From NCBI GenBank assembly GCA_036676805.1, contig JAKFCD010000056.1, forward strand, positions 2,966 through 66,965: a stretch of DNA of 64,000 nucleotides. Reading direction: 5' to 3'. Both the position numbers and the translations under genes were made by a program. The notes beneath the pieces are model-generated. The model had not been told where the DNA came from, searched no databases, and saw only the letters and a program-made list of their open reading frames with translations. Source of the DNA: Elusimicrobiota bacterium (GTDB lineage: Bacteria > Elusimicrobiota > Elusimicrobia > UBA1565 > UBA9628). Positions 11,693 to 62,000 of the stretch are shown here, piece by piece; position 1 is the stretch's first letter, and each line of letters starts with the position of its first letter.

Positions 11693-11703
11693 ATTGAGAA
11701 CTT

Positions 11704-11793
11704 CGGAGAGGGAGGGATTCGAACCCTCGGTACAGCTTTACGCCGTACAACGGTTTAGCAAACCGTCGGTTTCAGCCGCTCACCCACCTCTCC
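11704..11793 (-). tRNA. tRNA-Ser (anticodon GCT)
   Basis: Minus strand GGAGAGGTGGGTGAGCGGCTGAAACCGACGGTTTGCTAAACCGTTGTACGGCGTAAAGCTGTACCGAGGGTTCGAATCCCTCCCTCTCCG. It has the acceptor stem, a GCT anticodon loop, a long variable arm and a TTCGAAT T-loop. CCA is not encoded. Confidence 0.97.
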
Positions 11794-11805
11794 ACTATCT
11801 TGATA

Positions 11806-33741: not shown

Positions 33742-35486
33742 GACTTCACCTCCGAAGGTTCGCCTGATCCGTAGTCCGGGACGGCCGCACGCAGGTCGAG
33801 GCCGCTTTCCGCCTCGGCGTCCACGGGCCGCAGGGGCGGCACGGCGAGGGTCCGCGCGACCTCACGCACGCGCGCGGTGCGGACTAAGCACTCGGCCCGG
33901 CCGGGCGAGAGCACGAGCGCCGTGCCGGGCTCCAAGGACTTGAGCTGGTTGGGGTGGACCTTGAAGCGCTCCACCTCGCGGCGCGAGCGGTCGCCGGTGC
34001 GATGGTCTCCCAGGAGCGCGCTCTCCACGCGCTCCGTGTCGCTCGTCGTCGTGCGCGTGCCGAGGGTCGTCGCCCAAAACTCGGCGTCCTCCGGGTTCGG
34101 CGAGCGGAAGCAGACCTTGCAGCCGGAGGTGTTATTGAAGACCACGGACTCGAAGGCCGCCACGTCCATCCCCTCCACGCGCTTGAGCTGCCCCAGGTCC
34201 TGGTGCGAGAGGATCGTGCGCAACCTGGCCGAGCCCACGGTCGCCACGAAGGAGGCGAAGACCGGCGTCGCGAACTCGGCGAACTCGTCGAGGATCACGG
34301 TGGCGGGTCCGGGCTTGGGCTCGGTGCGCTGGCGCGCGGCCGCCACCGACAGGAGCCCCGAGATCACCATGCGCCCGAGCGGATTGGCGAGCACCTGGAG
34401 ATGTCCCACGGGGACCGCGAAGTAGGCGGCGTGGCCGCGCTCGAAGATGTCCTCGAGGCGGATCTGGGGCGAGTAGCTGTTGAGGATTTCACCCAAGGCG
34501 CCGGTCGTCCATGGCCGGAAGGCCGAGATGAGAGCGCTGCAGTCGGGGTTGGCCGTAAACTCCTCGCGAGCCAACTTCACCATGCGCTGGTCGCGGCAGA
34601 GCCTGAACGCCTCCGTGCGAGCCTCAGGAAAGGCGAAGTAGCAGTAACAGTCGCGCAGCGTGAAACCCCGGCCGGTCGAGCAGAACACCTCGGCCATGCT
34701 CTGCACCTTGGCGTAGTCGACCGCGCGGTAATAGTCCTGCCCCTCGCCGGAGGAGGTGGGTTCGCGGCCGATGGCGCGGGCGATCTGGTTCGCCACGGCG
34801 GTCGCGTCCTGGCCGGAGACCGGCCGGATCGGGTTGAAGGTCATGGAGCGGTCGTCCTGAGGGTTGAAGTAGCGCACCGAGTCGAGCCGTCCGGCGACCC
34901 CGGCGGTCTTGAGGAACTGGTCGAAGTCGCCGCGGTCACCCTTGGCTTCCATAAAGAAAAGAGGCAGGCCCGCCTTCATGTCCTGGGCGGCGAGCGCCAG
35001 CAGGAGCTGGGACTTGCCCGACCGAGTCGGACCCACGACCTGCATATGCCCCTCGCGCTCGCGCTCGGTGAGGTTGATCCGGCGCTTGGAGCTGGTCAGC
35101 CCCAGGAAAGTCTCCTCGCCCCGCCCCGATTGCAGCCGCCGGCCGAGTTCCTCATCCACGATCTTGGAATCCGCGGGCGTCTCCCAGTCCTCCTCGTCCT
35201 GAGCCGTGGCCTTTCGTCCGGCGGCTCCGAGCCCCACGGCCGCGCCGAAGCAGGCTGACGCCGCCGTCCAGCCGAGCCGAACGACGCTCCGGCGCGGCTC
35301 GTACCAGCGGCCGAAGTCCCGGTGAGCGCCGCTCAACCAGTCCACCGTCCGCCACGGCATGAGGGCCACGAACAGGGCGGCGGCGAGCCCCGTCAGCGCC
35401 CCGCCGAGCGCCCGGCGCTCGCTGCGCAGGCCGGTCAGGCCCGCGAGCATCACGGCCATGACGGCGAGGAAGGACCAGGGGCTCAT
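33738..35486 (-). CDS. virD4: VirD4-like type IV coupling protein
   Basis: N-terminal TM segments, VGPTRSGKS, VILDEF and ILSHQDLGQL. Confidence 0.9.
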   Translation of the reverse strand: MSPWSFLAVMAVMLAGLTGLRSERRALGGALTGLAAALFVALMPWRTVDWLSGAHRDFGRWYEPRRSVVRLGWTAASACFGAAVGLGAAGRKATAQDEEDWETPADSKIVDEELGRRLQSGRGEETFLGLTSSKRRINLTEREREGHMQVVGPTRSGKSQLLLALAAQDMKAGLPLFFMEAKGDRGDFDQFLKTAGVAGRLDSVRYFNPQDDRSMTFNPIRPVSGQDATAVANQIARAIGREPTSSGEGQDYYRAVDYAKVQSMAEVFCSTGRGFTLRDCYCYFAFPEARTEAFRLCRDQRMVKLAREEFTANPDCSALISAFRPWTTGALGEILNSYSPQIRLEDIFERGHAAYFAVPVGHLQVLANPLGRMVISGLLSVAAARQRTEPKPGPATVILDEFAEFATPVFASFVATVGSARLRTILSHQDLGQLKRVEGMDVAAFESVVFNNTSGCKVCFRSPNPEDAEFWATTLGTRTTTSDTERVESALLGDHRTGDRSRREVERFKVHPNQLKSLEPGTALVLSPGRAECLVRTARVREVARTLAVPPLRPVDAEAESGLDLRAAVPDYGSGEPSEVKS

Positions 35487-40759: not shown

Positions 40760-42778
40760 ATGATCGAGACCAACCCCGAAGCGAAAGTCCTGCTGGTCAG
40801 CATGCCGTTCGGCCCCCTCAACATGCCCTCGATCGGTCTTTCCCTGCTCCAAGCCTGCTTGAAGGACAAGGGCGTCGCGTCGCAATGCCTTTACATGACC
40901 ATCCCCTTCGCCAAGGCCATCGGCGCCGACCTCTACAACGAAATCACCTCCGGCAAGCCGGACTCGGCCGACATGCTCGGCGAGTGGATCTTCGCCGAGA
41001 CTTTGAGCCCCGGCCGCACCGACCCGGACGCCTACCTAAAGAACGTCCTACACGCCGGAGGCAAGAAGCCCGCCGACATCGATGCGATTTTCGCCAAGGC
41101 GCTTGGGGCCCGAGATCAGGCCGCGGCTTTCATCGAGCGCTGCGCCCGGGAAATCCCCTGGGGCCAATACCGCGTCATCGGCTTCACGAGCATTTTTCAG
41201 CAGAACGTCGCCTCTTTGGCGCTCGCCAAGCGCATCAAGGCCGCGCACTCCCAAGTCACCATCGTATTCGGCGGCGCGAACAGCGAGGGCGTGATGGGGC
41301 TTGAAATGCTCCGCAACTTCCCGTTCGTCGACGCGGTGGTCTCGGGCGAGGGCGAGATCGCTTTCCCCCAACTCGTCCTGCGCCTTTTGGAAGGCGAGTC
41401 CATTGAGGCCGTCCAGGGCGTCTTCACGCAGGCGAACTGCCGGCAGGCGTTCCCCCCGAACGCGCGACTCACCGCCCCGTCGCCCAAGACGATGGACGAC
41501 CTTCCCATCGTGGACTACGACGACTACTTCGGCCAGCTCCACGCCAGCGGCCTCGACATCACGCACGATCTCCGCCTCCTCTTTGAGACCTCGCGCGGCT
41601 GCTGGTGGGGCCAGAAATCCCACTGCACCTTCTGCGGCCTCAACAGCTCCAACATGGCCTTTCGCGCCAAGTCCCAAGAGCGCGCCTTGTCCGAGCTCGA
41701 AGGCATGCTCGCCCGCTATCCCGGCATCGAGGTCTCGGTCGTGGACAACATCCTCGACATGACCTACTTCCAGCGCTTCCTCCCCGCTCTGCGGGACAAA
41801 GGCGGAAAGTCCGACCTGTTCTACGAGGTCAAGGCGAACCTGCGCAAGGAGCAACTCCAGCTCATGCGCGAGGCCGGCATCACCAAGATTCAGCCGGGAA
41901 TCGAGAGCCTGAGCAGCGCCGTGCTCAAGTTGATGCGAAAGGGCACGACTGGCCTCCAGAACGTGCAGCTCATCAAGTGGTGTAAGGAGTTGAACATCAC
42001 CCCCTACTGGAACATCCTCTGGGGCTTCCCCGGCGAGGACGCGGCGGAGTATGAGAAGATGGCGCGCTGGATCCCCCTGCTGACTCACCTGCCGCCGCCC
42101 GGCAGCACCGCGCAGCTCCGCCTGGACCGCTTCAGCCCCAACTTCGACCAATCGGCGGCGCTGGGCTTCAAGAACGTCCGAGCGCGGTCCTCCTACGGCC
42201 ATCTTTATCCGACCTTCAGCGAGGAGTCTCTGCACAAGGCCGCCTATTACTTCTCCTTCGACTACCAGGACGGCCGCGACCCGCGAGGCTACGTCCGCTC
42301 GCTGCAGGACGCCGTCCAAACCTGGATCGGCGATTACCGCGAGAACGAGATGCTGTCCCTGGAAACCGAGGATGGGCTGCTCATCTGGGACCAGCGCGGC
42401 GCCGGCGAGCCCCGTCAATGGCTGCTGAAGGGCCGGGCGCGCGAGGTCTATGAGTCCTGCGACCAGATCCAGAGCGTGCGCGGCGTCGCCGCGCGCCTGG
42501 AAGCCTCCGGTAACGCGGAGTACGAGGCCGACATCGCCCGGCTCGCCCAGGCCATGGCGCGAGAAGGCCTGCTCCTCGAAGACAACGGCTTCTACCTCGC
42601 CCTCTCGATCCGCTTCGGCAACTACGCGCTGCCTGAGACCGTCCTGAGCCGTATCGCGACCGCGTTCGACCGCATGGGCAGCGGCGAACTCGATCTCTCT
42701 GAAGAAGCTCCGGGTCTGTACCACGTCCGGACGGCCGCCGCCGAGCCGCAATCGGCGCCGATCTGCGCTACGGCGTAG
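40760..42778 (+). CDS. RiPP-maturation B12-binding radical SAM enzyme (TIGR03975-like)
   Basis: LVSMPF...PSIGLSLL, GFTSIFQQNVASLALA, VFGGAN, ETSRGCWWGQKSHCTFCGLN, QPGIESLS, NILWGFPGE and LDRFSP. Confidence 0.92.
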   Translation: MIETNPEAKVLLVSMPFGPLNMPSIGLSLLQACLKDKGVASQCLYMTIPFAKAIGADLYNEITSGKPDSADMLGEWIFAETLSPGRTDPDAYLKNVLHAGGKKPADIDAIFAKALGARDQAAAFIERCAREIPWGQYRVIGFTSIFQQNVASLALAKRIKAAHSQVTIVFGGANSEGVMGLEMLRNFPFVDAVVSGEGEIAFPQLVLRLLEGESIEAVQGVFTQANCRQAFPPNARLTAPSPKTMDDLPIVDYDDYFGQLHASGLDITHDLRLLFETSRGCWWGQKSHCTFCGLNSSNMAFRAKSQERALSELEGMLARYPGIEVSVVDNILDMTYFQRFLPALRDKGGKSDLFYEVKANLRKEQLQLMREAGITKIQPGIESLSSAVLKLMRKGTTGLQNVQLIKWCKELNITPYWNILWGFPGEDAAEYEKMARWIPLLTHLPPPGSTAQLRLDRFSPNFDQSAALGFKNVRARSSYGHLYPTFSEESLHKAAYYFSFDYQDGRDPRGYVRSLQDAVQTWIGDYRENEMLSLETEDGLLIWDQRGAGEPRQWLLKGRAREVYESCDQIQSVRGVAARLEASGNAEYEADIARLAQAMAREGLLLEDNGFYLALSIRFGNYALPETVLSRIATAFDRMGSGELDLSEEAPGLYHVRTAAAEPQSAPICATA

Positions 42779-46471: not shown

Positions 46472-46574
46472 CCTTGGGCATCGAAGGTAGGGGGCCTATC
46501 CGCGAATAGGCCAATAGACCCTCGTCCAACAAGGAACTCCAGGCTAAGCTTCTATATCGCCTTCAAGGCGACTC

Positions 46575-46670
46575 TGTAGCCCGGGGGATTGGCCCCGGGG
46601 TATCCACGATCCGACCGCAATCGGATGAAACCAGAGGCTTGGCACGCAGTGTGCCCAGGCCTTTGGTTTT
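46575..46670 (+). ncRNA. Candidate structured leader RNA, copy 1
   Basis: 38-nt block with 35/38 identity to 53332-53369 (minus), then hairpin ATCCGA-CCGCAA-TCGGAT, then a long stem AAACCAGAGGC...GCCTTTGGTTTT. Confidence 0.5.
46639..46654 (+). promoter_or_regulatory. Possible sigma-54 promoter (-24/-12) for the peptide gene
   Basis: TTGGCACGCAGTGTGC has a perfect TGGCACG and GG-N10-GC spacing. Caveat: it lies inside a palindrome. Confidence 0.5.
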
Positions 46671-46731
46671 CATATTTTCCGTACCGGCGAATTTTGGTAG
46701 ACTCATAACTTCACGGAGGTTCGATACAAAC

Positions 46732-46884
46732 ATGAACAAAAAGCTCCCGTTCCTCATCGTCGGCTATCTGCTGGGCGCGTGCGCTCTCGTGGCGTCCATT
46801 TCCGCCATGGTCTACACCAAAGCCTCCGTGGAAGTCGCTTCGAGTTCCGACAGCAACTGCAAGAACGGCGGCTCCGGCCTTTAA
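46732..46884 (+). CDS. 50-aa putative signal/RiPP precursor peptide
   Basis: GGAGG SD; MNKKLPFLIVGYLLGACALVASISAMVYTKASVEVASSSDSNCKNGGSGL has a basic-hydrophobic N-terminus and a Ser/Cys/Gly-rich C-terminus. Confidence 0.75.
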   Translation: MNKKLPFLIVGYLLGACALVASISAMVYTKASVEVASSSDSNCKNGGSGL

Positions 46885-46980
46885 ACCGTCGTATTCTTGT
46901 TCCGCCGATCCGCCCAGCAACGGCCATGGGGCCTATGCTGGGCGGCTATTTTCAACAGCCCCTTTGCCAGTGTCTCTCCC

Positions 46981-48450
46981 ATGAACCCAACGATGCGTCG
47001 TTACGCGCTTCTCGCATTCGCGGTATTGGGCGTGATTTTGGTTTACTCATGGCATGGCATGACCCATTCTAAGACCCTCCGAGTCGGCTTTCCCCTCATT
47101 TTTCTCCGGCAAGACCCGACGATCCTGGACCCGCGAAATACGGATACGGTCTATGAGTATTATCTGCTCGAGAATCTTGCCGTCGGCTTGGTCCGCGACT
47201 CGAGCCAGTCGCCGTCGGGCTACGGGCCCGGCATCGCGGAGTCTTGGGAGCGTCTCTCACCGACGCGTTGGGTATTCCATTTGCGGCCGGGACTGGCCTG
47301 GAGCGACGGCACCCCTATCGACCCCGCGCTGATCGCGAGTCATGTCGTGTCGTTGAGCCGGGAGAAACATAGGCACATCGTCTACCTGAAGAAGCTTCTG
47401 AGCGCGACGGTGGAGAACCGCGATCTCGTCCTCGAGTTCTCCGCGCCCACCAACGACGGCCTGATCCATGAGCTGAGCCTGGCGGACTCGGCGTTGCTCC
47501 ATCCCGACAATCTTACGAAGGACTGGCTCGTGACCTCGGGCCCTTTCTCGGTCGAATCATACGAACCAGGAAAGAGTCTTCACTTGAAGAAGAATCCCCA
47601 CTATCGGGTTCAAGACGGTTACCCGGACCAAGTGGAGCTAGTGGGCTTCACAAAGGATACCACCGGAAACTTCTTCGACACCGTCGACATCGACCTGCTG
47701 AAGATACCTCTCCCTTCTTTTCGAGGATCGAATCCGAAGGTCTTAGCCAAGGCGCCTCAGGTGCTTCGCGGCTACCCCACGTCGATTTACCAGCTGTACT
47801 TCAATACGGAGAAATCCCTTTGGCGCGACGTCGAGGCGCGTCGGGAATTGGCCTTCATCACCGAGCAGGCGCTGAAGGGGTTCACATATGCCGATCTCGC
47901 CCGTGAGCGCCAATTGATCCCGAAAGGCTATTCAGGCCGTCTCGATGACGGCGCGGTGCCGAGTGGCTCATCGCGGGGTCTCCTCGCCGGCAAACGCTTG
48001 AAAATCTACCTTTGGCCTTCATTCTCCGACGGCCCTCAGATCGCCGCGGCCCTCAAAGCAGGTTTCGAGAAGGCGGGAGTCCCGCTGGACATCGGGTACG
48101 CGTGGGAGCTGCCCGAGATGGCGCCCGATTCCGACCTCCAGATGACATTATTCGCGGGCAATCAGCGCGAAGCGATGGGAAGCTGGCAGTTCATGTTCTC
48201 CCCGGATCATGGGCACCTCCGCCACTTCCGTCCGAAAGTGGAGCCTTTTTTCGACCGGATCATGGCCTCCGACGACAAGGAGGACCGCGAGACCAACATC
48301 CGCGCCCTCCACAGTCACGTGTTGAAGGAAGCCTACGCCGTGCCCCTTTTCATCGAGGCGGACATCCTTGTGGCAAGCGATCAGGTCGACCTTTCACGTC
48401 TAAATCCCTTCGACTTGCGTCTGCGGTTCTATGAAGTCCAGTGGAAGTAG
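46981..48450 (+). CDS. ABC-type family-5 (oligopeptide) substrate-binding protein, without permease or ATPase genes
   Basis: PGIAESWERLSPTRWVFHLRPGLAWSDGTPI, VTSGPFSVESYEPG, LKKNPHY and EAYAVPLF. Confidence 0.88.
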   Translation: MNPTMRRYALLAFAVLGVILVYSWHGMTHSKTLRVGFPLIFLRQDPTILDPRNTDTVYEYYLLENLAVGLVRDSSQSPSGYGPGIAESWERLSPTRWVFHLRPGLAWSDGTPIDPALIASHVVSLSREKHRHIVYLKKLLSATVENRDLVLEFSAPTNDGLIHELSLADSALLHPDNLTKDWLVTSGPFSVESYEPGKSLHLKKNPHYRVQDGYPDQVELVGFTKDTTGNFFDTVDIDLLKIPLPSFRGSNPKVLAKAPQVLRGYPTSIYQLYFNTEKSLWRDVEARRELAFITEQALKGFTYADLARERQLIPKGYSGRLDDGAVPSGSSRGLLAGKRLKIYLWPSFSDGPQIAAALKAGFEKAGVPLDIGYAWELPEMAPDSDLQMTLFAGNQREAMGSWQFMFSPDHGHLRHFRPKVEPFFDRIMASDDKEDRETNIRALHSHVLKEAYAVPLFIEADILVASDQVDLSRLNPFDLRLRFYEVQWK

Positions 48451-49387
48451 CCGCTGGTCCCTCGACCTGAATCTCATCCGCAAGGGCGGCGCGCAGATAA
48501 AGTCCCCGCTGACCGGCCGCACTGAGCAGTTGAATTGGTCGGTCATCAAAGTTCCCGCGAAACTCCTTCCGATCTCCGTGGTCGAATGCCGTCTCGTAGG
48601 CATGGGCCGAACAGTCTACGGCTACGGCGACAGCCTGCTCTATACGGACTCCCTCACCCAAGCCTTCGCCGAGGCCTGGGAACGCCTATGGTTCGACCTT
48701 CATTGCGACGACCCAAACGGAGTCAGCGGCCCGCTTCGCAGTAGCAACGGCTTCGCCTGCGGAGCAACGCCACAAGAGGCCGAGGCGGCCGCACGATCCG
48801 AACTGATCGAGCGCGCCGTATATTTGACGGCCTGGAACGCGCGCAATGGCTGGGTCCCGATCACATCGACCGGACTCTTGAACCGGGTTCTACTCGCGTC
48901 CCTCGATGTCCTCGGCTGGGAAATCGCGTTATTCCGCCTGTCAGAGGAAACATTGGGCGATGTGATTTGCGGGCTGAGCACCCGAAAAACCGGCGGAGTG
49001 CTCTTCGACTGCGTCTATCAGCGGCAAGGCGTCGCTATGGGGCAGGCCCAATCGAAGGTGCTGCGTTCGCTTCTCAGATCCGCCGTCGTCCTTGGCAATT
49101 CCCCCGCCTCTTATGCGCCGCTTCCCGAGCGCGGCGGCCCTTCCTCGCATAGAGACTTCTATATGGAGCCGGCTAACCTCGTCGCCTTCGATTTCTTGAA
49201 GGAGCGGCTATCGATGGCCGAACGAGTTAAACTAGACGGCTGCGATCATACCGAGACCCGTATCCTTGTCGATATCGAAGGATTCCCCTGCGTCGCGGCG
49301 GCGACGAATCCACATTGGCCCGTTCTGAGCTGGGGCAAAGAATCGCTTAAAGAGGGAGGCAATCCATGGCCGCATCCTCTCGCCTGA
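48431..49387 (+). CDS. Compact YcaO-family protein
   Basis: AFAEAWER, SSNGFACG...EAEAAARSELIER (ATP-binding motifs) and a Pro-rich C-terminus NPWPHPLA. Confidence 0.85.
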   Translation: MKSSGSSRWSLDLNLIRKGGAQIKSPLTGRTEQLNWSVIKVPAKLLPISVVECRLVGMGRTVYGYGDSLLYTDSLTQAFAEAWERLWFDLHCDDPNGVSGPLRSSNGFACGATPQEAEAAARSELIERAVYLTAWNARNGWVPITSTGLLNRVLLASLDVLGWEIALFRLSEETLGDVICGLSTRKTGGVLFDCVYQRQGVAMGQAQSKVLRSLLRSAVVLGNSPASYAPLPERGGPSSHRDFYMEPANLVAFDFLKERLSMAERVKLDGCDHTETRILVDIEGFPCVAAATNPHWPVLSWGKESLKEGGNPWPHPLA

Positions 49388-51411
49388 CTCTCGTCTCGCC
49401 GCTGCGCGTCTGGCTCATTTTCAACGCGTTGTTCGTCGCCTTGGTCGCCAGCAGCTGGTATACCCTTTATCGTCAAGCCCAGGCCGACAACCAGCGCCTT
49501 GTCGCCAGCCAAACCATCACTTTGACCAAATCTCGCTTCGACGACATCAAGAACCGCCGGTTCCGGGATTTCGTCGAAGGCGTCGGCCGAGAGTTCTCGG
49601 ACCTCCATGTCCGGCTAAGCATCGCCGAAGAGACATACCAATTCGGCAAACTCCCCTCTCCGGGACACTGCAGCGACCTGGTCTACCCGCTCGGAGGTCG
49701 CGGCGCGGCGAGCGAGGCCCGCATCACGATGTGCCGCCCGTTCCGGTTCTCGAGCGCTCCGATCTTGGCCGTACTTCTCGTCTATCTCCTGATTTCAGGC
49801 CTGTCCCTCGTATTCGTCAGGCGGCTGGAGCGCCGCACGACCGCCGCGCTCGTCGAATTCCTGCGGGCCTCGGGCGTGGAGATCGATTCGGGTCGAGACC
49901 TTATCGGCATCATGGCGGACATGCGCGACATTCGTATTCGGCTCGATCAGGCCCAGGCGCAGGAACGCCAATTGATCGACACCCGCGCCCGCGCCGAACT
50001 GGCCGAGCAGGTGGCGCACGATATCCGGTCTCCGCTCACCGCCCTGGAGGCCACGGCCGGCGACATGGACTCGATGCCTGAGAAGAAGCGTCTTCAGATC
50101 CGAAGCGCCCTTTCCCGCATCCGCGATATCGCTAACGGCCTTCTCGATCGACGGAGAGCCGACATAGGGGAAAGCGGCTCTACAGTAAAAAGGGCGGATT
50201 CCTCCCCACAGCTGCTGTCCAGCTTGATCGAACCCATCATCTCCGAGAAACGCCTGGCGCTAGGACCCGACTCAGGCATCGAGGTCATTTCTCCCGATGC
50301 GGCCGGCTCCTACGGGCTCTTCGTCCTGGTCGATCCAGTGGAGTTCAAGCGGGCGCTCTCGAATCTTATCAACAACGCCTTGGAAGCTCTGGACGGAAAC
50401 GCGGGAAAGGTGCGCGTAACCGTCTCCAAGTGTGACAGCCAAATTCTCGTCGCCGTGAATGACGACGGCAAGGGCATGCCGCCGGACGTGCTCGCGAAGC
50501 TCGGACAGCGCGGCGCCACCTTCGGCAAGGCCGGCGGCTCCGGGCTGGGGCTCCATCATGCCCGGGCCAGCGCCAAGGCCTGGGGTGGACGCTTGGACAT
50601 CGCCTCGGAGGTCGGCGAGGGGACGACCGTGACTTTGGCTCTTCCCGCGGCCTCCGCGCCTGTTTGGTTCGTTCCTGAGGTCGCGACGGCTCGAAGCGGC
50701 CTCGTCGTGATTCTAGATGACGACGAGGGCATCCATCAGGTCTGGCGCGATCGTCTGAACTCCCTGGGTGCTGATGGACAAACCGTCGAAGTACGCGGCT
50801 TTTTCACGCCGCAGGACCTTCGGGGGTGGGTCAAGGCGAACCCCCTTGACGCTTCGCGCGCGCTCTATCTCCTGGACCACGACCTGGCAGGCTTCACGGA
50901 CACTGGTCTAAGCCTTGCTTCGGAACTCAGTCTTGAACGGCACGCGATTCTTGTTACGGGACGGCATGAAGACGCTAAAGTCCTGGAAGAATGCCGAATG
51001 CTTGGCATCCGCATGCTCCCAAAAGAGTTGGCCCCGCTGGTCCCCATCCGAGTGTCTGCTTCCGCTCCGACCAACGCCTCCGCGACTAGGCTGCTTGACG
51101 CCGTGTTGATTGACGACGACCCGCTGACCCGAATGACCTGGGAGAATGCGGCTGCCGAATCTGGGAAGGAGTTGCGCACCTTTTCTTCCCCAGCGGAGTT
51201 TATGCGCGAATATGGAGAGATCGACCGGCGGACGCCGATATACATGGATGTGAATCTGTCCACGGGGACGGACGGGGCCGCGGAGTCGCTGTGGGTTCAC
51301 TCTCTCGGGTTCAGCGAAATATACCTCGCGTCGGGGCATCCGCCTGAGAGATTCGCGAACCTTAAGCACCTACGGGCAGTGGTCGGCAAGGAACCGCCCT
51401 GGAACGCATGA
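49366..51411 (+). CDS. Membrane hybrid histidine kinase with two C-terminal receiver domains
   Basis: Two TM segments around a short periplasmic domain; QVAHDIRSPL, NLINNALEA, DDGKGM and GSGLGL; REC1 (ILDDD, LLDHDL) and REC2 (IDDD, YMDVNL). Confidence 0.92.
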   Translation: MAASSRLTLVSPLRVWLIFNALFVALVASSWYTLYRQAQADNQRLVASQTITLTKSRFDDIKNRRFRDFVEGVGREFSDLHVRLSIAEETYQFGKLPSPGHCSDLVYPLGGRGAASEARITMCRPFRFSSAPILAVLLVYLLISGLSLVFVRRLERRTTAALVEFLRASGVEIDSGRDLIGIMADMRDIRIRLDQAQAQERQLIDTRARAELAEQVAHDIRSPLTALEATAGDMDSMPEKKRLQIRSALSRIRDIANGLLDRRRADIGESGSTVKRADSSPQLLSSLIEPIISEKRLALGPDSGIEVISPDAAGSYGLFVLVDPVEFKRALSNLINNALEALDGNAGKVRVTVSKCDSQILVAVNDDGKGMPPDVLAKLGQRGATFGKAGGSGLGLHHARASAKAWGGRLDIASEVGEGTTVTLALPAASAPVWFVPEVATARSGLVVILDDDEGIHQVWRDRLNSLGADGQTVEVRGFFTPQDLRGWVKANPLDASRALYLLDHDLAGFTDTGLSLASELSLERHAILVTGRHEDAKVLEECRMLGIRMLPKELAPLVPIRVSASAPTNASATRLLDAVLIDDDPLTRMTWENAAAESGKELRTFSSPAEFMREYGEIDRRTPIYMDVNLSTGTDGAAESLWVHSLGFSEIYLASGHPPERFANLKHLRAVVGKEPPWNA

Positions 51412-51430
51412 ACCTATCCCGCGCTTTCAT

Positions 51431-51970
51431 ATGAACCGGGCCCCTGCGCTCTATCACATCGTTCCCGATGATCTAGTCGGGGATACGCTATACCCCCTGA
51501 ATCGCCTCGCAGAACTCCATCCCAGGGTCGCCTCGGAGCATGCCCGGAAATACACAGGCCGCGAGCGCCTGATGCAAGTTAGGCTGCCGATACTGGATTG
51601 CCTGTGGAACGACGTACTGCACTTGGCCCCGCTCCATCCGTCGATTACCAAGGCGGCGCTGCTTGCCTCGGGCTTCCAGGTCAGCCCGCGACGTTTCTTC
51701 GTGATCTCGCCGGAATTGCTTAATCCCCGGCACACGGTGCATTTCAAGCATTCCAGGGACACGCACGGGGTATATGATTTCCTGGCCTCGGACTTTTCAG
51801 CGTTTGAACCGGAGTCATACGAGGAACTTGAGCATGTTCCGGCGGAGCAGTCCGCTTACTTCCTGCGCATGAAAGCAACCGGAGAAAAGCCGCTCCTATG
51901 GGCAAGAACACCTCATGTATTCTATCTTGGCGATCTTCCCATAAACAACCTGCCGCGCATGGAGTGGTGA
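51431..51970 (+). CDS. Conserved-looking hypothetical protein
   Basis: Coherent ORF (LYHIVP...LYPLNRL...LPILDCLWNDVLHLAPLHP) 19 nt after the kinase. Confidence 0.6.
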   Translation: MNRAPALYHIVPDDLVGDTLYPLNRLAELHPRVASEHARKYTGRERLMQVRLPILDCLWNDVLHLAPLHPSITKAALLASGFQVSPRRFFVISPELLNPRHTVHFKHSRDTHGVYDFLASDFSAFEPESYEELEHVPAEQSAYFLRMKATGEKPLLWARTPHVFYLGDLPINNLPRMEW

Positions 51971-51975
51971 GACCG

Positions 51976-52746
51976 ATGAAGAAGCGCACCTCACGATCTG
52001 CCGCTCTCCTATTCGATCACTGCTACACGACCGACCGCGATCATAAGTTTCTCAAGCGACTCGCCAGAGCAGGTTTCACCCTTGACTCTTCGGTCGTCGA
52101 GCATCCGGGCCGGCATGTCTGCCGTTTCATTCTATTCTCGTCTCCTCAGCTAAAAACGCGCCATTACCTGGAATTCATCTCCAAACCAGTCCGTCAAGGC
52201 GTCAAACCGGGTCTCTCTTTCAGATGTGCCGACAGGCTTGAAGATCGATTCAAGGCGATTAAGCGTGACCGCGTCCTGAAACCGACTTTCGAGCACCGCA
52301 ACTACAATTGGAAGAAAACGGGACAGGGAGTTCACGCGCCCGGCTGGAACTTCGTTCACTTTCGCCGCAAAATCGCGGCCGTGGAAGTGTGGCTGACCGA
52401 ATACGAGCGGACGGGCGGAAAGAAGCGTCAGGTTAAATCACGACTATGGCACGATAACGGCGCCCTCGGCATCATCGGACTCGTCTTCGAAGCGACGGCA
52501 TCTGGCCGCCGCTATTTCGAGAGAATCCTCGGGAGAAGGATTGATGGATCTCTTCGGCTGCCTTGCGGGACACAATTGATCTTGGAGCCTGCAGCCAGAA
52601 CAAGGTTTCGCGGCGTCCTCATCAAAACCTCCAACTTCAGGAGATTCTGCGCGCGGGCGAAGCCCGACGAGATTTCGTCCCACGGAGGCCGCATGACCGC
52701 GGTGATTAAGAATCCGTCGGGCTCCTGGGATATCTTGGCCGTCTGA
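51976..52746 (+). CDS. VOC/glyoxalase-like (Glyoxalase_3-type) protein
   Basis: LLFDHCY, GFTL...VEHPGRHVCRFILF and HYLEFI; start ATG 51976. Confidence 0.6.
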   Translation: MKKRTSRSAALLFDHCYTTDRDHKFLKRLARAGFTLDSSVVEHPGRHVCRFILFSSPQLKTRHYLEFISKPVRQGVKPGLSFRCADRLEDRFKAIKRDRVLKPTFEHRNYNWKKTGQGVHAPGWNFVHFRRKIAAVEVWLTEYERTGGKKRQVKSRLWHDNGALGIIGLVFEATASGRRYFERILGRRIDGSLRLPCGTQLILEPAARTRFRGVLIKTSNFRRFCARAKPDEISSHGGRMTAVIKNPSGSWDILAV

Positions 52747-52754
52747 CGGCGGCT

Positions 52755-53225
52755 TTACGGCCCTGCCCGCACCAACCGCTTAAACCGTCGCCCGCCTTCG
52801 CTCGTTTTCGCGCTTATCGGCCGGCCGCGATTGAACCGCAGCTCAGCCAAGCGGCCGTTGCGAACACGACCGCTCAATATCCGCAGCGCATCCCAGTATT
52901 CGTCGAACACAGGAGCGGCCGGAGTGCCTTCCGCCACGGGGCCAAATGTCAGGCTGCGTTGGATGTTCTCGCACGAGACGATGTTCCCATCAACGATGTT
53001 GACGCCGTACATCGTGCAGTAGGCGTACTCTGAGCAGACCAGCGCCAACAGATAGCCCCATTGGCCGCTGCCAACCCCGGTCACGCTCGGAACCCCTGCG
53101 CGCTGGAGTACCTGATTGAACTGGCGCGCCTCGGCCCCCTCAGCGGACCTTGAATGCCCTGTTGCGGGGTGGCCGGACGGGAACGATTCGGAACTAACCG
53201 TCTCCGACATACCACGACGATCCAT
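52755..53225 (-). CDS. Hypothetical protein
   Basis: ORF with GGAGG SD, downstream of structured-leader copy 2. Confidence 0.5.
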   Translation of the reverse strand: MDRRGMSETVSSESFPSGHPATGHSRSAEGAEARQFNQVLQRAGVPSVTGVGSGQWGYLLALVCSEYAYCTMYGVNIVDGNIVSCENIQRSLTFGPVAEGTPAAPVFDEYWDALRILSGRVRNGRLAELRFNRGRPISAKTSEGGRRFKRLVRAGP

Positions 53226-53278
53226 AGGAACCTCCCACCTGCTCCCCGTTCTTTACACCCGGCACGGCGCCAGGCGAT

Positions 53279-53369
53279 AAAAAACGGGAAACGATAGTAG
53301 TCGTTTCCCGTGGTCGCATCCCGTTTCGGCGGGATCGTGGATACCCCGGGGCCGATTCCCCAGGCTACA
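53279..53369 (-). ncRNA. Candidate structured leader RNA, copy 2, ending in an intrinsic terminator
   Basis: Minus strand: 38-nt block, hairpin ATCCCG-CCGAAA-CGGGAT, then an 11-bp stem ACGGGAAACGA/TCGTTTCCCGT plus a T-run. Confidence 0.55.
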
Positions 53370-53464
53370 CAGGTCCATTTGCGTCTAATCCTAGTGTAGG
53401 CTGGGAACCGCACGCCTTACAGGGGCATTGGTCCTCCATAGGTTGGGGGCCAAAAGTCCTACCT

Positions 53465-53529: not shown

Positions 53530-53949
53530 ATGCCGAACGACTCCCCCTCCCAGGAGGGCGAGATACGCCGCCGCATCCTGATAGTTGAAGACGACGCCCT
53601 GATGCGAGTTTTCTATGAGCGCCTCTTCAAAAGCCACGCGCACGACCTGGACTATCACTTAGAGGGGAGCGCTGAGGGCGCGCTGGATTACCTGCGAGGG
53701 GCCAGCGTTGACGCGATCATCACGGACTGGGATCTACCGAGCGTCAATGGGATCTACTTATTGAAGGCTCTGCGTTCCCATCCATCCACCAAATCTCTGC
53801 CCGTCGTGATGGTAAGCGGGCGCACCGGTCCCGGCTATATGGACATCGCCCTCAAGAACGGGGCCAGCGACTACTTCTCCAAGCCTTTCGAGGTCACGGC
53901 CTTTCTCGATCGCTTGAGGTGCCTTCTCCGCCGACCCGGCGACCCCTAG
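53530..53949 (+). CDS. Single-domain response regulator (receiver only)
   Basis: LIVEDD, IITDWDLPSVNG, VMVSG and DYFSKPF. Confidence 0.92.
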   Translation: MPNDSPSQEGEIRRRILIVEDDALMRVFYERLFKSHAHDLDYHLEGSAEGALDYLRGASVDAIITDWDLPSVNGIYLLKALRSHPSTKSLPVVMVSGRTGPGYMDIALKNGASDYFSKPFEVTAFLDRLRCLLRRPGDP

Positions 53950-53953
53950 CCCA

Positions 53954-55264
53954 TTATGGCGCCAGTTCCCACTCCCCCCATTTCGCGCGCCTGAATAGCC
54001 CCCGATTCGCGGTGAGGATCGCGCTGACGGACGGCGGCTTGTAGCCCTTCGCCTTCGCCGCCGCGTACATTTCCTGGAGCGTCGCTGGGCCGTCCTTCTC
54101 GCGCAGGAACTCGACCAGGAAGTCCTTAAGGCTCTTCACGGCCCGCTCTTCCCATTCCGGCAGGCCGAAGATTCCGCCATGACGAGCCCGCACGAACTCC
54201 TCCTTATGGATGGCGAGCATCGTGTGGACGCTGACCGGGTTTACGGGCGCACGGTGAGGATAGAGCTCATCTATTTTCGCGGCGATCTTCTCGTGGTGCG
54301 CGGGCTTGCCGATCGCGGCCAGCGCCGCATGCGCCATAGAGTGAAGGCTGTGGGCGTTGAAGTAAGACCAACTCCGCAGTCCGACCGCGCCGTTTTCCTC
54401 GATGCCAAGCTCACGTGAGAGCTCAAAGCACCGGCGGAGGAATCCTGGCGTCGTTTCGATGAGCATCTTTTTTCGGAGCCAGGCTCCGAGTTCGTCGAGA
54501 GCCATCGGCCGACCTAGGTTCAGGAGCGCGGTCTTGGTGAGGTCCATAATCTGATCGTGGCGATATTTGATCGAGGCGCTCTCGTAGCACACATCATCCA
54601 GACCGATAGTGACCAGGAATTCGGGTTTGGATTCAGAGACCCGGCAGAGAAAAGCGAAGGCCAAGCCCGCCGACTCCTTTCCGCGGCAAAGAACGGAGGC
54701 GGTGTCCTTCCACTCATGGATTCCGGCCATGCCCTGGCGCGCGGCGAGAAGCTTGAGGTAAATCGAACGGAGCGCGTGCTTGAACTCCTCGGATTCAGGC
54801 TTAAGCAGCCGTCTTAAATCAGCTGTTCCCCGCTCAATGTCACTTTGGACAGTACGATTGGCGAGATTCAAAGCCCTTGAGATTCCAGCACGATCCATAG
54901 GATGCCCGTCCCAAAGGCCGTAAGCTTTTTCGAGGACGGCGCGGCAACGAAACTCTAGCCGCCCCAACAACTCGCAGATGCGATCGGGCAATTGAGCGGG
55001 GTCTGCATCCCCCAGGATTCCGGGGGCGAAGTCTCCTGCAATGGCCAGAAGCAGCGCCTGCCTGGCGCGACGGATTTGAAAGGGACCAAGCGCGAGACTC
55101 TCTAACGGAGCGACTGCCAAGTCATTGACGGTCCGCAATCCCTTCGCGGCGAGCGCCTTCAGTAAGAGGCGCTGAAGAGGCAGGTGATCCAGAGATTTTT
55201 CCGCCACGCGCGCGGCCTCGGCATCAGTTAAAGAACGCCTGAGAATGGTCGCTTCCGATTCCAT
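53954..55264 (-). CDS. Multi-domain DNA/RNAP-binding protein: alphaCTD-like + sigma70 region-4-like + HARE-HTH/wHTH
   Basis: LDHLPL...ALAAKGLRTVNDL; RAVLEKAYGLWDGHPMDRAGISRALNL; AALAAIGKPAHHEKIAAKI...IFGLPEW. Confidence 0.7.
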   Translation of the reverse strand: MESEATILRRSLTDAEAARVAEKSLDHLPLQRLLLKALAAKGLRTVNDLAVAPLESLALGPFQIRRARQALLLAIAGDFAPGILGDADPAQLPDRICELLGRLEFRCRAVLEKAYGLWDGHPMDRAGISRALNLANRTVQSDIERGTADLRRLLKPESEEFKHALRSIYLKLLAARQGMAGIHEWKDTASVLCRGKESAGLAFAFLCRVSESKPEFLVTIGLDDVCYESASIKYRHDQIMDLTKTALLNLGRPMALDELGAWLRKKMLIETTPGFLRRCFELSRELGIEENGAVGLRSWSYFNAHSLHSMAHAALAAIGKPAHHEKIAAKIDELYPHRAPVNPVSVHTMLAIHKEEFVRARHGGIFGLPEWEERAVKSLKDFLVEFLREKDGPATLQEMYAAAKAKGYKPPSVSAILTANRGLFRRAKWGEWELAP

Positions 55265-55409: not shown

Positions 55410-55817
55410 ATGGCGACCAGATCTTCACGGCAAGTCGGCGCGCGTCCTCACCGCATCCTGATCGTCGAAGACGACGACATAATGCATGTGTTCTACAAGG
55501 CGCTGTTCCGCAGGCACAAGGACGAGTTCGTCTGCCATTTCGAAAGGAGCGCGGCAGCCGCCCTGGTGCACCTGCGGTACGGGAACATCGAGGCAGTGGC
55601 TTTGGCCTGGGATCTTCCCGGCATCAACGGGATCGACCTTCTAAAGGGCATGCGCGTCAATCCCGAAACCAGGGACATCCGCGTGATGGTCGTCAGCGGT
55701 AGAACGAGGACGGAGGATCAAGTGCTGGCCCTGGCGAGCGGCGCCGACGACTATCTCACCAAGCCGTTCGAGGTCGACATCTTCCTGGCGCGCCTGCGCA
55801 CCCTGCTCCGACGTTAG
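55410..55817 (+). CDS. Single-domain pseudo-receiver (phospho-acceptor Asp replaced by Ala)
   Basis: Paralogue of 53530..53949, but reads EAVALAWDLPG where the paralogue has DAIITDWDLPS. Confidence 0.85.
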   Translation: MATRSSRQVGARPHRILIVEDDDIMHVFYKALFRRHKDEFVCHFERSAAAALVHLRYGNIEAVALAWDLPGINGIDLLKGMRVNPETRDIRVMVVSGRTRTEDQVLALASGADDYLTKPFEVDIFLARLRTLLRR

Positions 55818-58145: not shown

Positions 58146-59027
58146 TTAGAAGCGCGCGCCGAGGCTGAACCGGTGCGAGCGCCCGAGCTCGCCCGAGGGC
58201 AGGACGGCGTAGTCGAGGCTCCACTTCTCGTTCCGGAAGCCCAGTCCCAAAGTCAGGCCCCTGGCGACGTCGAAGCCCGAACCGCCGGTGATGGCCGTGC
58301 GCGTCGTGTACCCGGCGCGCAGGAACACGTTCTTGACCGCCTGGTACTCGCCGCCGAAGGAGGCGTCCGTCCCCGCCCCCCGTGGCCCGTTCACCGCCTC
58401 GGCCGCCGCCGCATGGCCGCCATTAAACCGGTAGGCCGCGCCGACCGTGAGCCGCAGCGGCAGGTCATTGCGCTGATCCTGGTACTTGAGGCCGGGGCCG
58501 AGGTTTCTCAGCGCCGCGCCGACGCTCACCCGGTCGAAGGCCCGCTTGGCGCCGATATCGGCGGCGACGCTCTGCGCCTGCGTCCCGGCGATGTGGCTTT
58601 GCAGGTACTTGACGGTCGCGCCCAACTCGGCGATATCCAGCTTGCGCGCGTAGCCGAGGCTTAACGCCGCGTCCGAGGCGTCGTAGCCCGCCGTCCGGCG
58701 TCCCAGGCTGTCGCGGCCTTCGAGCTTGCCCTGGCTCAGGTAGGTCAGGCCCGCCGCGAAAGTCCCCTGGCTGGTCGGATGGGCGTAAGCCAGGAAGTCG
58801 AGCCGCGTACTCTCGAAGAGCTCGGCGTGGCTGGCCGTGAACTCGCGCTTCTCAAGCTTGGACAAACCGGCGGGGTTCCAGTACAGCGAGTTCGCGTCGT
58901 CGGCCAGCGCCGTGTAAGCCCCTCCCATGCCGAGCGCTCGCGCGCCCACGCCGATGTCCAGGAACGACGCCGTCTCGGCGCCGAACACCGAACTCGCCAG
59001 CAGCAGGACCGCCAGGAGGGCTCTCAC
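58146..59027 (-). CDS. PorV/PorQ (UPF0164)-family beta-barrel protein
   Basis: ASFLDIGVGARALGMGGAYTALADDANSLYWNPAGL...DYAVLPSGELGRSHRFSLGARF. Confidence 0.88.
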   Translation of the reverse strand: MRALLAVLLLASSVFGAETASFLDIGVGARALGMGGAYTALADDANSLYWNPAGLSKLEKREFTASHAELFESTRLDFLAYAHPTSQGTFAAGLTYLSQGKLEGRDSLGRRTAGYDASDAALSLGYARKLDIAELGATVKYLQSHIAGTQAQSVAADIGAKRAFDRVSVGAALRNLGPGLKYQDQRNDLPLRLTVGAAYRFNGGHAAAAEAVNGPRGAGTDASFGGEYQAVKNVFLRAGYTTRTAITGGSGFDVARGLTLGLGFRNEKWSLDYAVLPSGELGRSHRFSLGARF

Positions 59028-62000
59028 TTGATCACCCCCACCCCGCCGGTCTTGCGGACGTCCGGCTGTCCCGACTTCTTGGCCGTGATAACGAACCTGT
59101 AGACGCCCGAGCCGACCCCGGACACGTTCCAGACGTGGTCGTACGTGTTCTGGGCGCCCTTGCCGTTGCCGTCATCGACGGCGCCCAGGAACCGGAAGTC
59201 CGAGGAGGAGTGAACCTTCCGGCCCGCCACGTCGTAGACGCGCACCTCGATCGAGTCCGCCGAGCCCGGCTGCATGCGGAAGGTCACCGCCGAGCCGTTT
59301 CGGGAGGGATTCGGGAAGGCGTAGCCGTCGCGCAGGCCGAAGTCGTCGACGGCGGCCACCCCGATGCCGCCCAAGGCGCCCACCTGGTAGGCCGAGAAGT
59401 GGGTCGTCTCGGCGTTGACGGTCTTGGCCTTCTTGTCCACCGTGGAGGGCATTGCCTGCCATTCCTGGAGGGTCGGGTTCCAATAGTAGACCTTGAGGTC
59501 GTCCTCCCGCAGACCCCGGGAGGCCATAAGGTTGGCGTCGTAGGGTATTGTTAAGGTCACCGGCGCGCTGAAGGTCGTTCCCTCGGGGCCGTACTGAATC
59601 TCGTCCGAGACGGCCGTTATCTTCAGTTCCCGGCGCTTGGCCTCCTTGGGCTCCTTGTCGACGTTCTCGTCGCCCTTCTCGACCGTGATTTCGAGGTCGG
59701 CGGCGAGCGCGCCCTTGGGCACGCGCACACCCGAGCCGTCGTCGCGCGAGACCGCGGCGCCGTCCTTGTGGTCGACGACGCGGCGCGCCGGCTCCTCCGA
59801 CTCGGAGGCGAATTCACCGCCTCCGCTGGAGAGGGAGGCCAGGCCGCCGTCCGCGGGCGGCAGCGCGTAACGCACGATGCGATCGCGGCCGGTGTCGGTG
59901 ACCCAGATGGAGCCGTCGGGCGCTACGGCCGCGTCGATGGGCTGTGTCAGCCAGCGCTTCGCCTTCTTGTCGGCAAGGCTCAGCCCGGCCTTCGTGCCGA
60001 AGGCGAGCAAGCCCTTGCCCCGCGGATCGAACTTCTGCACCCGGTCCCGGTTGGGCTCGACGACGTACAGCGCTCCGAGGCGGTCCGAAGCCAGGCCGCG
60101 CATGCGCGAGAGCTCGCCTACCGCCGAGTCCGCGCCGCTGATGGTCTTGATCAAGCCCCCCGAGCGGCTGAAGAGATGAATGACTTCGAGCTCCTTGTCC
60201 GTGACCCACAGTCCCTCGGACGTAAGCGCGAGGCCGCGGATCTCCGAAGTGGACAGGAACACTGCCGCTCCGAATTCACGCAGGAAGGCGCCGGAGGCGT
60301 CGAACACCGCGACCCGGCGGTTGCCCGAGTCGGCGGCGTAGACGTCGCCGTTGGCGTCCACAGCCACGTCGAAGGGACGGCGCAGCTCCCCGAGGCCCGA
60401 GCCGGACCGGCCGAACTGGAGCAGCAGCGTCTGCCCGTCGGGCGAGAGCTTGACCACGCGGTTCAAGTCCCGGTCGGCGACGTACAGGCTGCCGGCCGCG
60501 TCGAGCGCCAGGCCCTGCGGGGTCTTGAAGAGCCGGTCGCCCTGACCCCGCTCCTCGTCGTCGCGGTCCTTGTCCTTCTTCCCCTTCTTGTCTTCTTTGT
60601 CATCCCCGCTGTGTCCCGGAGCGCGGCCAGCCGCGCCGAGCAGGACGCCCGCGGGGCTGATCAGGAGAATCTGGTCGTTCTCCGTACTCGCGACCCAGAT
60701 CGACCCGTCCGAGCGGACCGCGATGCCGGTCGGGCCTTTCAGGTCCGAGACGATCGCGTCCGAGTTCTTGCGCCCGATCGCGAAGGTCATGACCGGCGCG
60801 CCCACGAAGACGGTCGCCGTCGCCTGCGCGGCGTTGCCGAAGGCGTCGACCGCGCGGAAGCGCATGGTCTGATAGCCGGACAAGGCGGCCGTGTTCCAGG
60901 CGGCGATGAGGCCCGAGAGATTGCCCGCGCCGGAGGCGATCGCCGTGAAGCCGCCGGCCGCCGCCGCGCCGGGCGCTGCCTCGAGCGTCCAGCTCACGGC
61001 GCTCGCGTCCGTGACCGCCCCGCGCACGTCGACGACGCCCCCCAACGCCTGCTCGATCCCGGAAGCCGCGGCGCCAGGGAAATCCAATCGAACGAGCGGC
61101 GGCGTAGTGTCGGTGACCGGGCTCGTGACGGTGATCGAGACGACCTGCGCCGTCTCCAGGTTTCCGGCCCCGTCGCGGCTGCGGAAGGCAAGCGAATGCC
61201 CGCCGGGAGAAAGCGACAGGGTCGAGACGAATACCGCCTCGGCGGTGCCATCGAGGGAATACAATGTCTCAAGAACCCCAGTACCCGCGTCGATCGCGGC
61301 GAAGGCCACCGAGTCCGTGGAGGCCAGGATCAAGCCGCCGTTGCCGGCGGCTTGGCCATTAACCAGGAGCGTCGTGACCGGGGCGATCGAGTCCAGCGTG
61401 AAGGTCGAGGCCGCCGAGGCCTGATTGCCCGCCAAGTCGGCGACCTGGACCGCGACGACGTGGGCGCCTTCGGAGAGGGGAGCGCTCGAGGTGAAGACTG
61501 CCGAGGAGGCGGTCACGACAGCCTGCGCGGTCACGTCGACGCCGTCGAGACTGAGACGGATGGAGGCGGCGTCCACGCCGCGACCGGCGTCGGAATAGAC
61601 GGCCGCGATCTGGGGCGCCGTCGTCGCGACGGTGCTGCCGACGGCCGGCGTCAAGACGACGGCCGGAGGCGTCACGTCATAGAGCAGGACGTCGAGGGCG
61701 ACGTTCTTGGGCGCCTCGGCATTCCCCGCGTCGTCGACGCTGAAGAACACGAGGGAGTGCGCCCCGGCGGCCAGGCTGAACGTCGAGGTGTAGACGGTCG
61801 GAACGCCCCCGTCCAGCGCATACTCCGTCCGCGCGACCCCGGTCCCGGCGTCGGCCGAAACGAAGCCGAACGCATCGGTCGAGACGACCACCAAGGCCGT
61901 CGTCGCAGAGTCGAGGCCGTTCACTTGGAGGATCGTCTCCGGCGGTAGGGAGTCCACGAAGAAGCGCGCCGCGGCGGACGCCTCGTTGCCGGCAAGGTCC

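Follow-up and report, generated by a model that had tools for sequence, protein, structure and literature searches.

What is the element that occurs twice, in opposite orientations, within 64,000 nucleotides (nt) of a genome assembled from an Elusimicrobiota bacterium (contig JAKFCD010000056.1 of assembly GCA_036676805.1; this whole stretch is hereinafter the window), and why does a gene follow it each time? The window has a G+C content of 65% and its sequence occurs in soil metagenome runs. A first-pass annotation had described the repeat as an unrecognised leader element with a covarying hairpin and a downstream terminator, of the kind seen in riboswitches, attenuators or small RNAs. The two copies lie where that description placed them, as TGTAGCCCGGGGGATTGGCCCCGGGGTATCCACGATCC at 46575-46612 (+) and TGTAGCCTGGGGAATCGGCCCCGGGGTATCCACGATCC at 53369-53332 (-), and are identical at 35 of 38 positions. 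A degenerate pattern of their core finds only these 2 sites in the 64 kb window and 0 in 100 shuffles, and a repeat search recovers a single inverted pair (46572-46633 and 53311-53372; 62 nt, 82% identity) with its arms 6677 nt apart. We posit that both copies are very probably aptamers of the 2′-deoxyguanosine-II (2′-dG-II) riboswitch class, each heading its own mRNA, and we predict from their sequence that both act as kinetic ON switches.

The identity of the element emerges from a cmscan search against Rfam 15, in which both copies match the 2′-dG-II family (RF03165) across the entire model, well above its gathering score of 60 bits, with 2dG-II being the best clan member for each; they were also scored with our own covariance model, R1 (Table 1). 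The only other match in the window to reach a gathering score is a tRNA-Ser (11703-11794). The label "unrecognised" thus has to be dropped and, as the first-pass annotation itself held that a match to a known family would remove the novelty of the element, that novelty falls, RF03165 being already in Rfam. Its guess as to the kind of element, a riboswitch-type layout in which a covarying aptamer is joined to a terminator platform, was correct. The class was reportedly defined by Weinberg et al. in 2017 as the "UCC variant". The 12 members known in 2017 all came from metagenomic reads without an assignable phylum (PMC5473149), while a further account gives Bacteroidetes as the source of the class and a signal receiver domain among its published gene associations (PMC8872408).

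The structure of the class, solved in 2019, rests on U22, C51, an equivalent of C74, a 2-nt insertion in J3/1 and a G-C pair atop P1 (PMC6847200). Both window copies fold into a three-way junction that is closed by P1 and braced by a loop-loop contact between L2 and L3, and both display the core nucleotides of the class, namely U22, C51 within GUAUCCAC, C78 (the C74-equivalent) and the G21-C79 pair. The J3/1 insertion is likewise present, in that G74 and C79 are separated by 4 nt (AAAC in copy 1, CGAC in copy 2). The P1 pair next to the junction (columns 8/64) is G-C in both copies as in all 93 sequences of the alignment described below. The compensating changes earlier observed in the hairpin now assigned to P3 (ATCCGA/TCGGAT versus ATCCCG/CGGGAT, around the loops CCGCAA or CCGAAA) stand. 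The description of this loop as ending in GNRA does not: CCGNAA is the L3 of the purine-riboswitch fold, with its invariant CC opposite the invariant GG of L2. Similarly, the parts of the leader recognised at first correspond to P2, J2/3 and P3, whereas the outer helix P1 was overlooked, and the unit is longer than had been proposed.

Relatives of the element were sought in two collections. Scanning the genome collection with a loose DNA pattern gave 119 loci, 115 of which are chance matches in coding DNA; the true members from this source (L017, L091 and L106; related loci are given by such numbers throughout) all belong to metagenome-assembled genomes (MAGs) of Elusimicrobia. An A+T-richer aptamer-like sequence from a Balneola MAG (L013, 3934-4006, -) reaches 51 bits with our own model, lies below the Rfam gathering score and may be a distant member. 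A stricter pattern of fixed length yielded at least 120 loci from the metagenome collection, one of which (L182) holds two 2dG-II aptamers about 2.2 kb apart on the same strand (324-394 and 2588-2658, both -). From the window, the three Elusimicrobia MAGs and the metagenomes we assembled an alignment, A2, of 93 distinct 71-nt aptamers among the matches listed. The search pattern left the helix positions and positions 24 and 75 free and fixed those of the junction and loops; hence, the invariance of the latter in this sample is partly by construction. When the Rfam structure is laid over these sequences, 90.8% of the paired cells hold complementary bases as compared to 73.6% upon shuffling, and 19 of the 21 pairs show double-sided changes, bearing out the covariation in homologues on which the RNA reading had been made to depend. 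In P2 as in P3, about 99% of the cells are paired. Sliding the partners by one column lowers the pairing to 56-57%.

Four observations weigh against the reading of the copies as ON switches of this class. First, a generic sigma-70 scan finds no consensus promoter upstream of either copy. Second, in the RNA runs the sole matching run consists of contigs that share the conserved aptamer core only and derive from other loci. Third, the genes downstream have no evident tie to nucleoside metabolism. Finally, neither copy has a U at position 75: copy 1 is G24/A75 and copy 2 G24/C75. In the published structure A24 and U75 form a Hoogsteen pair, U75 is termed "invariant", and the U75A mutation of env1 weakens the binding of 2′-dG 46-fold (PMC6847200).

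The last of these points can be examined across the 93 distinct aptamers: 45 are A24/U75, 9 A24/C75 and 3 A24/A75, while 29 are G24/A75 and 7 G24/C75, with none being G24/U75. Thus, positions 24 and 75 covary, with U75 occurring in 0 of the 36 aptamers that have G24, and in this larger sample the published description of U75 as "invariant" fails. G24 is shared by both window copies and all three members from Elusimicrobia MAGs. Because the curated model scores both window copies well above its threshold, we regard G24/(A or C)75 as a subtype of the class rather than as grounds for exclusion from it. Judged by its sequence pattern, G24/A75 looks like the compensated replacement of a second-shell pair and not like a change to the binding pocket.

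One could alternatively propose that this subtype retains the fold with an altered ligand, such as guanosine or another guanine derivative. Such a shift would account for strong covariation between 24 and 75 in as many as 93 distinct aptamers and for the weight that the structural study places on the A24-U75 pair through its "invariant" U75 and the 46-fold loss in U75A; further, selectivity for 2′-dG over guanosine already ranges from 2.6- to 180-fold among the tested members of the class (PMC6847200). We nevertheless consider an altered ligand distinctly unlikely, since the first-shell U22, C51 and C78 together with the whole of J2/3 fit the class consensus, the G24/A75 combination resembles a second-shell swap with compensation, and the window copies score as high as canonical members with the Rfam model. 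Moreover, A24/U75 aptamers control the same type of operon in other organisms: the operon coding for a solute-binding protein (SBP), a YcaO-like protein and a kinase (our families c5, c21 and c0, respectively) has A24/U75 leaders in L212 and L227 and a G24/A75 leader in L091. This suggests that both subtypes report one signal.

The reading as a 2′-dG-II switch extends to the sequences that follow the aptamers. Both copies are succeeded by a G+C-rich stem of unrelated sequence and a T-run, and then by an open reading frame (ORF) with a Shine-Dalgarno sequence. The folds reveal that these stems share nucleotides with the aptamer itself. In copy 1, the 5′ arm of the terminator comprises J3/1 and the complete 3′ strand of P1; the stem of copy 2, which spans 53311-53284 ahead of T6, has a 5′ arm that begins within the 3′ strand of P1, and this stem is kept in nine orthologous leaders. 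Neither copy has a separate anti-terminator, the 5′ arm of the terminator itself sharing the nucleotides of the P1 3′ strand in both. Constrained folds give the terminator state -58.6 kcal/mol versus -44.8 kcal/mol with P1 enforced for copy 1, and -47.1 versus -33.5 kcal/mol for copy 2. As a gap of about 14 kcal/mol favours the terminator over the P1 state, control must be co-transcriptional, with termination as the default. The same arrangement recurs in 91 of 108 distinct platforms of relatives among the matches listed: the hairpin has its beginning in the P1 3′ strand, and a T-run with five or more T per nine bases comes after it.

The anatomy of this platform, rather than measurement, points to an ON logic that would operate as follows. 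RNA polymerase would start about 15-25 nt upstream of P1, and 2′-deoxyguanosine or a close guanine nucleoside would bind the junction of the nascent aptamer, thereby holding P1 shut. With P1 held, its 3′ strand would not be free to form the terminator's 5′ arm and the polymerase would read through; with the ligand absent, the far more stable terminator would form and transcription would stop. Copy 1 would in this manner switch on an operon for a small peptide, an SBP, a YcaO-like protein and a hybrid histidine kinase, and copy 2 the gene for a protein of 156 amino acids (aa).

Both leaders have additional structure. At the predicted 5′ end of the copy 1 transcript is a hairpin, TCGCC-TTCAA-GGCGA (46557-46571, +), that overlaps the outermost part of P1, and equivalent 5′ hairpins are seen in the copy-1-type leaders of L091 (-), L161, L177, L198 and L206 (+). 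In the leader of the 156-aa gene, an inner hairpin (window 53230-53283, -) separates the terminator from the Shine-Dalgarno sequence; it is flanked by AGAACGGGA, which in leaders of this gene can pair with the 3′ arm and the U-tract of the terminator. This second feature is also found in L091 (270-335), L126, L128, L149, L158, L172, L196 and L199. RNAalifold, when applied to the copy-2 leader from the terminator to the start codon, recovered the terminator only and not the second hairpin, the leaders aligning too poorly in that part.

With termination as the default by a wide energy margin, either leader should yield mostly short RNA, and some other riboswitches give precedents for functional terminated products. 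The terminated leaders of about 110-125 nt might thus be trans-acting small RNAs, to which the genes downstream are incidental. We hold this to be very unlikely because a gene on the same strand, with a ribosome-binding site, follows both copies and the aptamer at nearly every related locus whose downstream sequence is long enough for a judgement; the families of the downstream genes recur; and no conserved single-stranded seed is apparent beyond the aptamer.

The copies had also been described as the inverted ends of a 6.7-kb peptide/kinase cassette. While this geometry is real, its cause lies in two riboswitch-led transcription units that are convergent, such that their aptamers appear as inverted ends; the stops of the 156-aa gene and the plus-strand unit are 8 nt apart. 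Both units recur elsewhere. They are again convergent in the Elusimicrobia MAG GWA2_66_18 (L091) and in L206, and in the truncated loci L149 and L223 the 156-aa unit converges on the kinase gene. In L177 the two are divergent, with aptamers at 5841-5911 (-) and 10331-10403 (+). This recurrence, with a divergent arrangement in L177, argues against the copies being the terminal inverted repeats of a mobile element.

Taken as terminal inverted repeats or recombination sites, the copies would delimit a mobile or invertible 6.7-kb cassette, an idea that draws on the length, identity and spacing of the inverted arms given above. It may also draw on L149, where a homologue of a TPR gene (4166-5590) lies upstream of a copy-2-type riboswitch (5699-5769); in the window, the TPR gene is instead upstream of copy 1, which suggests that the locus was once rearranged. 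However, the similarity of the copies is limited to the aptamer and their variation follows the RNA pairing. Searches with protein families find no transposase or recombinase in or beside the cassette. In L149 itself P1 is intact and of the copy-2 type on both strands, with no crossover visible within the aptamer. Together with the divergent units of L177, these features render a mobile cassette highly improbable, and we retain two convergent riboswitch-led units as the explanation of the inverted geometry.

A further conserved module lies upstream of the aptamers. Its parts are, in order, GGNCC(T/C)A, N7-8, T(A/G)GGNCC, A(A/T)NGN, CCCT, a spacer of exactly 22 nt and TAnAnT, the last being 8-26 nt from the TGTA of the aptamer (J1/2); it has three GGNCC boxes, two of which form an inverted repeat. 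A search of the window with the module pattern finds the region upstream of copy 2 as its sole match. The proximal box plus CCCT is present in 54 of 101 upstream regions as opposed to 21 of 1494 control segments, and upon adding the -10-like hexamer at the fixed spacing, the counts are 32 of 101 and 0 of 1494, respectively. The module is seen in many unrelated loci (e.g., L091, L138, L150 and L212). Its sequence conservation suggests a promoter with sites for a shared regulator, in which case initiation and elongation would be separately controlled. That the repeat itself might be a double-stranded DNA site, i.e., an enhancer or operator, can practically be dismissed: the palindromic GGNCC-box motif that could recall such a site is not part of the element but sits about 60-80 nt 5′ of the repeat, whereas the repeat shows compensatory changes in three helices, which vary with their pairing kept, unlike protein-binding sites, and it matches a curated covariance model.

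Turning to the genes, the 50-aa ORF that comes first after copy 1 is probably a real gene and a candidate for a precursor or secreted peptide. It has no family match in Pfam or NCBIfam, and the equivalent position in L091, L130 and L156 is taken by ORFs of some 60 aa whose N-terminus resembles a signal peptide. The strong hairpin between this ORF and the SBP gene has a comparable counterpart 3′ of the small ORF in L091, and could set the ratio of the peptide transcript to the remaining operon. The YcaO-like protein ends in PWPHPLA (49364-49384), a C-terminus of the PxPxP type that is typical of active YcaO enzymes; its counterpart at this position in L091, likewise a weak match to YcaO, ends in PVPHFYG.

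The homologues of the 156-aa protein fall into 45 clusters, none of which is named for a function, and their named sources are Elusimicrobia and one Armatimonadota. Taken together with the G+C content and the soil metagenome runs, this points to a probable host that is an Elusimicrobia-like bacterium of soil or groundwater. An AlphaFold2 (AF2) model predicts two tandem repeats of a helix and three strands (pLDDT, the per-residue model confidence, >90 in the core); searches find no structural neighbour in the PDB (best Foldseek E = 1.4) and no Pfam or NCBIfam match even at E = 10. In all 11 related loci with a homologue of this protein, its gene comes directly after a 2dG-II aptamer and in the same orientation. 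Stand-alone receiver-domain proteins are encoded near copy 2 at 53530-53949 (+) and 55410-55817 (+), flanking a 436-aa ORF without a family (53954-55264, -), and the first of these receiver genes (53530-53949) is also beside a copy-2-type riboswitch in L148 and L206.

Homologues of the kinase are found on the same strand downstream of a 2dG-II riboswitch in 19 reconstructed operons, and tblastn places them so in about two dozen loci. Two kinds of operon can be told apart. The first resembles that of the window in combining a small secreted peptide, SBP_bac_5, a YcaO-like protein and the kinase. The second combines a Cys-rich peptide of about 65 aa, a radical SAM enzyme, an SBP-like protein, in some cases a TldD/PmbA pair, and the kinase; the best NCBIfam match of its radical SAM enzyme, a weak one, is the YydG peptide epimerase. 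The genes behind further 2dG-II members code for secreted proteins, for an alpha/beta hydrolase and for a protein that bears an HNH-like motif. While the association of the class with receiver domains is already known in outline, we found no description of a peptide-maturation context for 2dG-II in the searchable literature. Elsewhere, the window codes for a VirD4/TraG-like coupling protein (33741-35486, -), a B12-binding radical SAM protein (40760-42778, +) and a 1641-aa NHL/Big_13 repeat protein (59024-63949, -) adjoining a PorV-like gene.

Table 1. Coordinates of the two aptamers, their expression platforms, upstream modules and transcription units in the window
Feature	Position	Strand	Details
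2′-dG-II aptamer, copy 1	46569-46639	+	RF03165 83.8 bits, model 1-71 of 71; R1 88.0 bits
P1, copy 1	46569-76/46632-39	+	
J1/2, copy 1	46577-79	+	UAG
P2, copy 1	46580-86/46593-99	+	CCCGGGG/CCCCGGG
L2, copy 1	46587-92	+	
J2/3, copy 1	46600-08	+	GUAUCCACG
P3, copy 1	46609-14/46621-26	+	
L3, copy 1	46615-20	+	
J3/1, copy 1	46627-31	+	GAAAC
2′-dG-II aptamer, copy 2	53305-53375	-	RF03165 77.3 bits, model 1-71 of 71; R1 82.0 bits
P1, copy 2	53375-53368/53312-53305	-	
Junctions, copy 2		-	J1/2 UAG; J3/1 GCGAC
Positions 24/75 (A2 columns 11/60)	46579/46628 (copy 1); 53365/53316 (copy 2)		
Intrinsic terminator, copy 1	46625-46680	+	Stem 46625-46673, -30.3 kcal/mol (folds); T-rich tract TTTGGTTTTCATATTTT
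Intrinsic terminator, copy 2	53278-53311	-	ACGGGAAACGA-CTACTA-TCGTTTCCCGT, then TTTTTT; terminator scan and folds
Upstream module, copy 1	46493-46550	+	Inverted repeat GGCCTAT-CCGCGA-ATAGGCC, 46493-46512
Further parts of module, copy 1	46519-46522; 46545-46550	+	CCCT; after a 22-nt spacer, -10-like TAAGCT
Upstream module, copy 2	53393-53451	-	GGCCCCCA 53451-44; GGACCAATGCCCCT 53434-21; 22-nt spacer; TACACT 53398-93
Small ORF, 50 aa	46732-46884	+	First after copy 1; ribosome-binding site; hydrophobic N-terminus, Ser/Cys-rich C-terminus
Strong hairpin	46910-46945	+	Between 50-aa ORF and SBP gene; fold -29.6 kcal/mol; pair in repeat search
SBP family 5 (peptide/nickel type)	46981-48450	+	Pfam SBP_bac_5, E = 1.5e-23; N-terminal anchor/signal
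YcaO-like protein, 318 aa	48431-49387	+	Pfam YcaO 33.3 bits (cutoff 25.7); TIGR00702 weak
Membrane hybrid histidine kinase	49366-51411	+	HisKA, HATPase_c and receiver-like domains (Pfam, NCBIfam)
179-aa ORF	51431-51970	+	No Pfam/NCBIfam match
256-aa ORF	51976-52746	+	No Pfam/NCBIfam match; gene call from L240; ends plus-strand unit
156-aa protein	52755-53225	-	Sole gene after copy 2

These results provide a context for a rare class of riboswitches: a 64-kb contig with two members, three Elusimicrobia MAGs and at least 120 metagenomic loci suggest a host phylum, and the terminator-based ON platform is the rule among the relatives. They also show that the structural description in terms of A24-U75 leaves a large subtype uncovered. 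We submit that the G24/(A or C)75 subtype, the widespread association with kinases and peptide maturation, and the conserved GGNCC promoter-like module go beyond the published descriptions of the class. The predicted regulon has its centre not in nucleoside metabolism but in secreted peptides and the enzymes of peptide maturation, along with solute-binding proteins and a hybrid kinase that is conserved. We would suggest that the switch senses products of DNA breakdown; if its ligand is 2′-dG, a free deoxynucleoside would serve as an environmental or damage signal, beyond its role as a metabolite. More speculatively, the G24/(A or C)75 subtype and the GGNCC module might constitute a two-input gate, responsive to a transcription factor at initiation and to a nucleoside at elongation, on a peptide-signalling circuit made up of a ribosomally made secreted peptide modified by YcaO or radical SAM enzymes, its binding protein and a hybrid kinase. 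In uncultivated Elusimicrobia and other bacteria, such a gate would link signalling between cells or at the envelope to nucleosides from DNA breakdown or to another guanine derivative, though we regard this fuller scheme as unlikely.

Known members of the purine family offer precedents for both the logic and the aptamers of the window switches. In the pbuE/ydhL adenine ON switch, a P1 held by the ligand competes with a far more stable terminator and the decision is kinetic. By analogy, the window copies may share this kinetic ON design. With the guanine/adenine riboswitches (RF00167) the window aptamers have the clan and the overall fold in common, but they differ in having C51 in place of U51, a J3/1 of 4 nt as opposed to 2, and G-C rather than A-U as the top pair of P1. 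C51, a longer J3/1 and a G-C pair in P1 are changes that shift preference from the nucleobase to the nucleoside (PMC6847200). The 2′-dG-I (Mesoplasma florum, RF01510) and 2′-dG-III riboswitches are likewise variants of the purine family that have C51 and sense 2′-deoxyguanosine. However, 2′-dG-I is without the J3/1 insertion and has other L2-L3 loops, while 2′-dG-III, although also an ON switch (PMC9295807), is found in Firmicutes upstream of nucleoside hydrolase genes.

The comparison is closest with 2′-dG-II itself (RF03165; env1 structure, PMC6847200), with which the window copies share the junction, U22, C51 and C78, the J2/3 sequence GUAUCCAC, the J3/1 longer by 2 nt, G-C as the top pair of P1, the contact between GG of L2 and CC of L3, and an uncultivated environmental source. 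They depart from it in having A or C rather than U at position 75 and G24 rather than A24. They also precede genes for the peptide/SBP/YcaO-like/kinase set and the 156-aa protein in place of the published endonuclease I, ComEC and phospholipase D, and probably have a host in Elusimicrobia as against no phylum (PMC5473149) or Bacteroidetes (PMC8872408). The published association of the class with receiver-domain genes, in turn, fits the receiver domains of the window kinase.

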